Origin: Escherichia coli
Lineage (GTDB): Bacteria; Pseudomonadota; Gammaproteobacteria; Enterobacterales; Enterobacteriaceae
Length of the DNA stretch: 64,000 bases
Reading direction: 5' to 3' (one strand)
NCBI RefSeq assembly: GCF_044324785.1
Contig: NZ_CP172127.1
The position numbers and the translations under genes were made by a program. Shown here in pieces: positions 40,419 through 40,810 of the stretch (positions are counted from its first letter, which is position 1; each line of letters opens with the position of its first letter). The notes beneath the pieces were generated by a model. It saw nothing but the letters and a program-made list of their open reading frames with translations, made no database searches and was not told the DNA's origin.

Positions 40419-40535
40419 AGGGGCTTCATCCGAATTGCGCCATTGTTGCAATGGCGGTTTTTATTGTTTTTCACGACAGTAACCGCACCTACACTGTCAT
40501 GACATTGCTCGCCCCTATGTGTAACAAATAACCAC

Positions 40536-40549
40536 ACTGTGAATGTTGT
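40536..40549 (-). promoter_or_regulatory. Putative FNR site in the nrfA promoter region
   Basis: Reverse strand TTGATtaaaGACAA resembles TTGAT-N4-ATCAA, about 120 bp upstream of the nrfA start. Confidence 0.4.
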
Positions 40550-40810
40550 CTTTAATCAATTGTAAGTGCATGTAAAATACCACTTTAGAGTTAGTCAGTA
40601 TCTTCCTCTTTTTCAACAGCATGCATAACTGCATGTTCCTCAAAGAATTAATCAACTTTTGTTGCTGACCTTCAAAAATTACCTTGCCGTTTATTTGCAC
40701 AATTCTACTTTTGCGTGATCTGTCGCCCAAATACTAAACAAAACTGCCAATACCCCTACATTTAACGCTTATGCCACATATTATTAACATCCTACAAGGA
40801 GAACAAAAGC

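Follow-up and report, generated by a model that had tools for sequence, protein, structure and literature searches.

A K-12-type nrfA/acs control region in Escherichia coli: regulator-site map, cross-genus footprint and the nrfA leader RNA

Several of the closest described systems to the locus presented here come from E. coli itself. At the E. coli nir promoter, it is established that class II activation by FNR is held down by nucleoid proteins and that this restraint is relieved by NarL/NarP (Browning 2004). The acs-nrfA region of K-12, with its promoters pnrf, acsP1 and acsP2, has reportedly been characterised in a series of studies (Tyson in 1994, Browning in 2002, 2004, 2005 and 2010, Beatty in 2003 and Godfrey in 2017); in the 2010 work NsrR and IHF are said to bind overlapping targets that adjoin the FNR site. 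The region is among the best-dissected divergent promoter pairs, in which nrfA is switched on without oxygen (nitrite reductase) and acs is switched on when sugar is exhausted (acetate scavenging).

Several published results fix the frame for a comparison. At pnrf, FNR has one binding site, with its centre at -41.5, and FNR binding totally represses the weak acsP1 promoter (Godfrey et al. 2017, PMC5434802). The same study reported that NarL/NarP bind a site at -74.5 of pnrf, that IHF I represses FNR activation and that NarL/NarP displace IHF, that Fis I overlaps the pnrf -10 element, and that the initiating base of K-12 pnrf is C (PMC5434802). Activity of pnrf53, a K-12 sequence identical at the FNR site to the DNA analysed here, was 5119 units in the wild type versus 54 and 36 in two fnr-deleted strains (PMC5434802), and acs/nrfA is listed among the in-vivo targets of FNR found by ChIP (Grainger et al., PMC1802558). 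Downstream of the start, CsrA regulation and the leader GGA motifs of nrfA have been described (PMC5434802); the role of the conserved long leader was called unclear, with CsrA not explaining all of the downstream repression (Godfrey et al., PMC5434802).

The DNA analysed here (the window) is a stretch of 64,000 nucleotides of an E. coli genome. It contains a spacer of 392 bp (40419-40810) between nrfA, read from the minus strand, and acs, whose ATG lies at 40811 on the plus strand. Alignment with E. coli K-12 MG1655 identified the flanking genes as the annotated nrfA (b4070) and acs (b4069), and 391 of the 392 spacer bases were identical to the reference; the divergent flanks and this near-identity together mark the spacer as the orthologue of the K-12 acs-nrfA control region. 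Its G+C content is 38.5%, versus 52.8% in the whole window. A preliminary description of this DNA had proposed an AT-rich divergent nrfA/acs control region of about 390 bp, and the comparison confirms both its identity and its composition. The region is present in 5410 of 5426 complete E. coli genomes. Judged from sequence, it is very probably (a probability of about 0.93) the control region that serves both the nrfABCDEFG operon and the divergent acs-yjcH-actP operon, and it would work as described for K-12. It is a region already known in detail, of which the window carries essentially the K-12 version, and it has little weight as a discovery. The K-12 identity, the motif positions relative to published starts and the cross-genus conservation were computed in this work; the protein assigned to each site and the direction of its effect are taken from the literature.

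The strain itself differs from K-12, because the surrounding 42 kb (window 21200-64000) are about 2.5% diverged from MG1655, with 1050 differences that are mainly transitions. We considered the low divergence of the spacer (1/392) as a sign of constraint and found it a weak one, as the adjoining 400 bp on each side are also about 1.1% diverged. Because these flanks are likewise little diverged from K-12, the footprint across genera is the better evidence of constraint. The features of the spacer are collected in Table 1.

Table 1. Features in and around the nrfA/acs spacer, in window coordinates, with identity to the window in 13 non-Escherichia species.
Feature	Position	Strand	Promoter coordinate	Description	Identity (%)
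Main tested CsrA GGA	40411-40409	-		codon 3 of nrfA	
nrfA start codon	40416-40418	-	pnrf +94	CAT on + strand; p+102A numbering (PMC5434802)	
GGAUGA upstream of nrfA AUG	40426-40431	-		probable Shine-Dalgarno; leader GGA motif, candidate auxiliary CsrA target	100
Hairpin 2	40432-40461	-	core at pnrf +56..+74	core 8-bp stem 40438-40445/40449-40456, 3 outer pairs	
A-rich tract AAAAACAAUAAAAA	40458-40471	-		between the hairpins; repeated A-R-N triplets	84
Hairpin 1	40471-40502	-	pnrf +10..+41	11-bp stem 40471-40481/40492-40502; conserved loop GUGYGGUU (40481-40488), GUGCGGUU	
pnrf transcription start	40511	-	pnrf +1	C; two independent published anchors	
ytcB (b4821)	40571-40515	-	pnrf -60..-4	18 codons; MG1655 RefSeq annotation; translation MHLQLIKDNIHSVVICYT, then stop	
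pnrf extended -10	40518-40526	-		TG (-15/-14) then TACACA (-12..-7); K-12 allele, A at -7	
Fis I of pnrf	40519-40533		pnrf -15 (centre)	Fis pattern 10/11, GTGTAACAAATAACC; overlaps -10	
52-bp block	40542-40593			FNR + IHF I/NsrR + NarL/NarP (Escherichia, Citrobacter, Intestinirhabdus)	96.9
FNR site TTGATTAAAGACAA	40559-40546	-		+ strand reads TTGTCTTTAATCAA (40546-40559); centre 40552.5	95.6
IHF I	40553-40578	-	pnrf -54.5 (centre)	best regional A/T-tract + WATCAR-N4-TTR match	
NsrR-like 11-1-11 site	40563-40585	-	pnrf -63 (centre)	AAGTGGTATTT-T-ACATGCACTTA; 15/22 match	
acsP1	40573-40587	+		likely -10 TAAAAT (40573-40578); start 40587	
NarL/NarP 7-2-7 site	40578-40593		pnrf -74.5 (centre)	TACCACT-TT-AGAGTTA; 12/14 match	99
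Variable spacer	40594-40623			expected place of E. coli-specific stimulatory IHF III; tolerates insertions	38.7
IHF II pattern	40625-40651		pnrf about -127, acsP2 -153 (centre)	second-best extended IHF match in region	
CRP II	40658-40679		acsP2 -122.5	core TTGCTGACCTTCAA; right half CTTCAAAA conserved	
T40684	40684		acsP2 -107, pnrf -173	C in K-12; sole spacer difference from K-12 (alignment)	
Conserved block	40684-40705		acsP2 -98 (centre of Fis-type site)	Fis-type G-N13-C with AT-rich core (40686-40700)	89
CRP I	40711-40732		acsP2 -69.5	core CGTGA-N6-GCCCA at 40714-40729, centre 40721.5	92.7
Fis site GCCCAAATACTAAAC	40725-40739		acsP2 -59 (centre)	best Fis match in region; overlaps CRP I	
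acsP2 core promoter	40754-40791	+		poor -35 CTACAT (40756-40761), -10 TATTAT (40779-40784; -12..-7), start C 40791; 98% conserved	
acsP2 -35 block					97.6
acsP2 -10, start, SD, ATG	40776-40813				98.2
acs Shine-Dalgarno AAGGAG	40796-40801	+			
acs start codon	40811-40813	+			
Third codon positions, flanking nrfA / acs					62 / 57

The start of pnrf was placed by two anchors. Counting 41.5 from the centre of the FNR site (40552.5) gives 40511. The p+102A substitution turns the AGG arginine codon at codon 3 into AGA (PMC5434802); the substituted base is the ninth of the coding sequence, which makes the A of the ATG +94 and places +1 at 40418+93, again 40511, where the minus-strand base is C. 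An FNR-like pair of half-sites on the nrfA strand had been noticed in the preliminary description, which allowed that the motif might lie at a position incompatible with the mapped nrfA start. Because both anchors agree on 40511, this objection falls away: the centre is at exactly -41.5, the class II position, and the quoted sequence, TTGATTAAAGACAA, is exactly the published FNR site.

The extended -10 element of pnrf offers a further check. A change at -7 specific to EHEC results in FNR-independent activity and escape from Fis repression (Godfrey 2017, PMC5434802). We searched with a 90-mer carrying this A-to-T variant (TACACT) and found 100% matches in 283 records, the top matches listed being O157:H7 or O157 strains; the O157:H7 variant thus falls exactly where our -10 assignment predicts. 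The EHEC hexamer is printed as TATACT in the text of PMC5434802 and reads TACACT in the genomes, a minor discrepancy of the text. With A at -7, as in K-12, the pnrf of the window should be wholly dependent on FNR and sensitive to Fis.

Upstream of the FNR site, at a distance of 33 bp, lies the NarL/NarP site, the only match to the 7-2-7 pattern (TACYYMT-NN-AKRRGTA) with two or fewer mismatches in the 64 kb, and it can be counted as a member of this class. The NsrR-like pattern is also rare, with only two sites as good as 15/22 in the 64 kb. Taken one by one, the FNR, CRP, IHF and Fis matches do not exceed chance, and what gives the CRP, Fis and IHF matches value is that they coincide with published positions and with blocks of conservation. 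For pnrf, we take the centre of Fis I to be -15 (as in Browning 2005) and the centres of IHF I and IHF II to be -54 and -127. Within the IHF II pattern, the segment ATAAC..CATGTT (40624-40637) is conserved and includes a 9/10 NsrR half-site, AACATGCAGTT (minus strand), together with a palindrome, CATGCA-N4-TGCATG. A sigma-70 consensus scan of 40300-40950 found no promoter, a result that is uninformative because all three promoters are activator-dependent or weak.

On the acs side, the published acsP1 sequence ends at an A 224 nt before the ATG (Olvera et al. 2009, PMC2759082, Table 1), which corresponds to 40587, and the acsP2 start determined by 5'RACE is a C 20 nt before the ATG (PMC2759082), which corresponds to 40791. 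The centre of the FNR site is also at -34.5 of acsP1, a position that fits the reported total repression of this promoter (PMC5434802). One FNR site serves both directions, in the activation of pnrf and in the repression of acsP1. For acs, the RegulonDB paper (PMC3531196) gives two CRP activator sites, the proximal one at -69.5, and three Fis and three IHF repressor sites. When the strength of the CRP consensus was examined, neither match exceeded chance (CRP I has 7/10 bases, a score for which the region should hold 2.4 sites, and CRP II is weaker); it is their position and conservation, as at CRP I (Table 1), that support the CRP sites, and not motif strength. The two CRP sites, the poor -35 element and the proximal site at -69.5 give acsP2 the layout of a class III promoter. 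We take the centre of the distal site, CRP II, to be -122.5 of acsP2, and the palindrome TTGCTGACCTTCAA sits there. Likewise, we take a Fis site to lie at -59 of acsP2 and equate the Fis-type site at 40686-40700 with Fis II, presumably at -98. The scans for FNR, NarL/NarP, CRP, IHF and Fis that the preliminary description had proposed returned best matches at published positions, and its view that both promoters integrate several global regulators agrees with the literature. A perfect single NarL heptamer, TACCCCT, was also seen at 40751-40757 (+), overlapping the acsP2 -35 region in the conserved block CCCTACATTTAAC; it is near chance, with 0.17 expected in the region, and we know of no function for it at acsP2.

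To follow the region beyond E. coli, one genome per species was scanned with a degenerate DNA pattern for the NrfA peptide FAPQHPDQY, which returned 28 loci, 19 of them with divergent nrfA and acs (Citrobacter species, E. albertii, E. whittamii, another Escherichia and Intestinirhabdus). We aligned 17 spacers, window included, and expressed conservation as identity to the window in the 13 non-Escherichia species. Against the third codon positions of the two flanking genes, conservation was high over a 52-bp block that unites the FNR, IHF I/NsrR and NarL/NarP sites, and over CRP I, the block at 40684-40705 and the acsP2 core through the acs ATG; it was lowest in the variable spacer (Table 1). 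Citrobacter carries an insertion of about 35-40 bp at this variable spacer (40594-40623), upstream of the NarL/NarP site. The variable spacer of an isolate from horse faeces likewise holds an IS1B element (NZ_CP091836.1, 2289-2986; about window 40608), which comes between pnrf and the IHF sites upstream, and between acsP2 and the nrf side. In a strain evolved in a chemostat, acs expression is known to be raised by IS30 inserted in the acs promoter (PMC2763269).

The single base that separates the spacer from K-12, T40684, falls on the edge of the conserved block 40684-40705 and, at the same time, on the 3' end of a Fis-like 15-mer. The 61-bp stretch around it had an exact match in only one of 5408 E. 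coli records, the laboratory strain ME8067, and no record other than this one is identical over the full spacer. Citrobacter species have a T at the aligned column too.

The nrfA leader spans 93 nt (40419-40511, minus strand). Folding of the single sequence produced both hairpins of Table 1 with z = -1.65, which is not significant alone, and the consensus fold of the 17 sequences keeps both. In this alignment 98.3% of the cells at hairpin positions form standard pairs and four pairs have changed on both sides; in 4 sequences one pair of hairpin 1 has gone from AU to GC, a compensatory change. This level of pairing and covariation was reached by no shuffle, and slid registers gave 26-59% pairing, with the caveat that the sequences are related. 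Read on the opposite strand, the same columns pair in 84.2% of cells. For hairpin 1 the pairing is 98.8% on the nrfA strand versus 75.1% on the opposite strand, and for hairpin 2 it is 97.7% versus 93.2% on the plus strand. By count, ten pairs alternate via G-U on the nrfA strand versus two with A-C mismatches (one-sided binomial about 0.02). Such strand-specific G-U pairing points to selection that would act on the sense leader RNA of nrfA.

From these patterns we tentatively suggest, as a possibility well short of even odds, that the 93-nt leader may itself act as a conserved element of post-transcriptional control. If so, it could bind Hfq with an undescribed small RNA or set mRNA stability, and it could account for the downstream repression beyond CsrA. 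An Hfq-type reading of the A-rich tract is our own speculation from general knowledge. No report of nrfA being regulated by a small RNA came up in a literature search. An Rfam search at a permissive E-value gave nothing at gathering score; the matches to MicA (20.4 bits, gathering 41) and rli43 (15.4 bits, gathering 100) were sub-threshold, and we judged them to be chance matches driven by a terminator-like hairpin.

Other explanations can be imagined for the main elements of this map. The FNR-like motif could be a chance match in AT-rich DNA without control of nrfA, and motif counts alone speak for this: the site has 8/10 bases of TTGAT-N4-ATCAA, sites with two or fewer mismatches number 47 in the 64-kb window vs 29.5 +/- 4.7 in shuffles, about 0.3 matches of 8/10 are expected by chance in a region of the spacer's size, and a second palindrome of equal score, TTGCTGACCTTCAA, occurs at 40662-40675. 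The latter is co-centred with CRP II (acsP2 -122.5), an overlap that fits the kinship of the CRP and FNR consensus sequences. However, the centre of the first site is at exactly -41.5 from a start derived independently via the p+102A numbering, its near-invariance holds across three genera vs about 60% identity at neutral sites, and published mutational, gel-shift and ChIP data favour a real site (PMC5434802, PMC1802558). We hold the FNR site to be more than chance because of its position, the unique NarL/NarP site upstream and its near-invariance in three genera, and a chance match is scarcely conceivable. Alternatively, the 52-bp block might be conserved for the small protein YtcB and not for regulator sites. 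RefSeq annotates ytcB, which covers the FNR site and the pnrf -10, and the open reading frame is intact in four Escherichia sequences. Its conservation does not extend further: the ATG is ATA in 9/13 non-Escherichia species, several of them lack the stop codon or have it elsewhere, and the DNA is near-invariant all the same; moreover, the conserved block goes on for 22 bp past the start of the ORF, taking in the NarL/NarP site and ending at 40593, and no Shine-Dalgarno sequence precedes the ytcB ATG. Expression of ytcB would need a transcript from upstream of pnrf -60, and we know of no such nrfA-directed promoter; a literature search for E. coli ytcB returned only Bacillus genes of the same name. 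Citrobacter has lost the start codon and yet kept the DNA near-invariant, so the conservation reflects binding sites and not ytcB, and the small-protein explanation is highly improbable.

The downstream hairpin of the leader raises a similar question on the other strand, where the hairpin at 40438-40456 and the following T-run might be a working intrinsic terminator (an antisense stop or the 3' end of an antisense small RNA) and not leader structure. A terminator scan does call hairpin 2 followed by GTTTTTATTG (40438-40466, +), the T-rich run is conserved, and the weak MicA-like match lies on the plus strand at 40387-40461 (E=1). But the score of this match is far below the gathering value, the sigma-70 scan found no plus-strand promoter inside the 5' end of nrfA, and pairing is better kept on the nrfA strand, in hairpin 2 and more so in its neighbour. 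We consider a plus-strand terminator unlikely as the explanation of the hairpin; the terminator and leader readings of hairpin 2 are compatible with each other.

Taken with the published work, the map suggests how the region would operate. Under anaerobic conditions, FNR at -41.5 would bring RNA polymerase to pnrf, a weak promoter of the extended -10 type (TG-n-TACACA, start 40511), and the same bound FNR would cover the -35 region of the opposing weak acsP1 and keep it off. IHF at about -54 would damp FNR activation, with NsrR probably acting likewise alongside, and phosphorylated NarL or NarP at -74.5 would displace IHF and so allow nitrite induction. In rich medium, Fis over the pnrf -10 (at -15) would shut pnrf down, and CsrA would act on the nrfA mRNA at the start codon. 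In the other direction, acsP2 (start 40791), with its poor -35, would depend on two CRP dimers at -69.5 and -122.5, while the Fis sites that overlap or flank the CRP sites and the upstream IHF sites would serve as anti-activators. In this manner the divergent pair would integrate oxygen through FNR, nitrite and nitrate through NarL/NarP, nitric oxide through NsrR and carbon status through CRP, Fis and CsrA, together with the nucleoid proteins IHF and Fis. The practical value of the analysis is an annotation map at the level of coordinates, and two small leads emerge from it, namely the structured and conserved nrfA leader and the strain-private base at acsP2 -107 (T40684).

Among known relatives, the nir promoter follows the same logic as pnrf as far as description allows it to be likened, with FNR at -41.5, NarL/NarP upstream, IHF and Fis, but it is another locus with another sequence and lacks a divergent CRP-dependent partner. 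The Citrobacter-type pnrf is closer and shares with the window the conserved FNR-IHF I-NarL/NarP block, the leader hairpins, CRP I and the acsP2 core. In Salmonella, known here from description, pnrf has an insertion similar to that of Citrobacter and has lost the stimulatory IHF III (PMC5434802). The pnrf of O157:H7 (EHEC) has the same architecture of regulator sites as the window (Godfrey 2017) and differs at -7, where it has T (TACACT) and the window has the K-12 A; the map therefore predicts K-12, and not O157:H7, behaviour for this strain.
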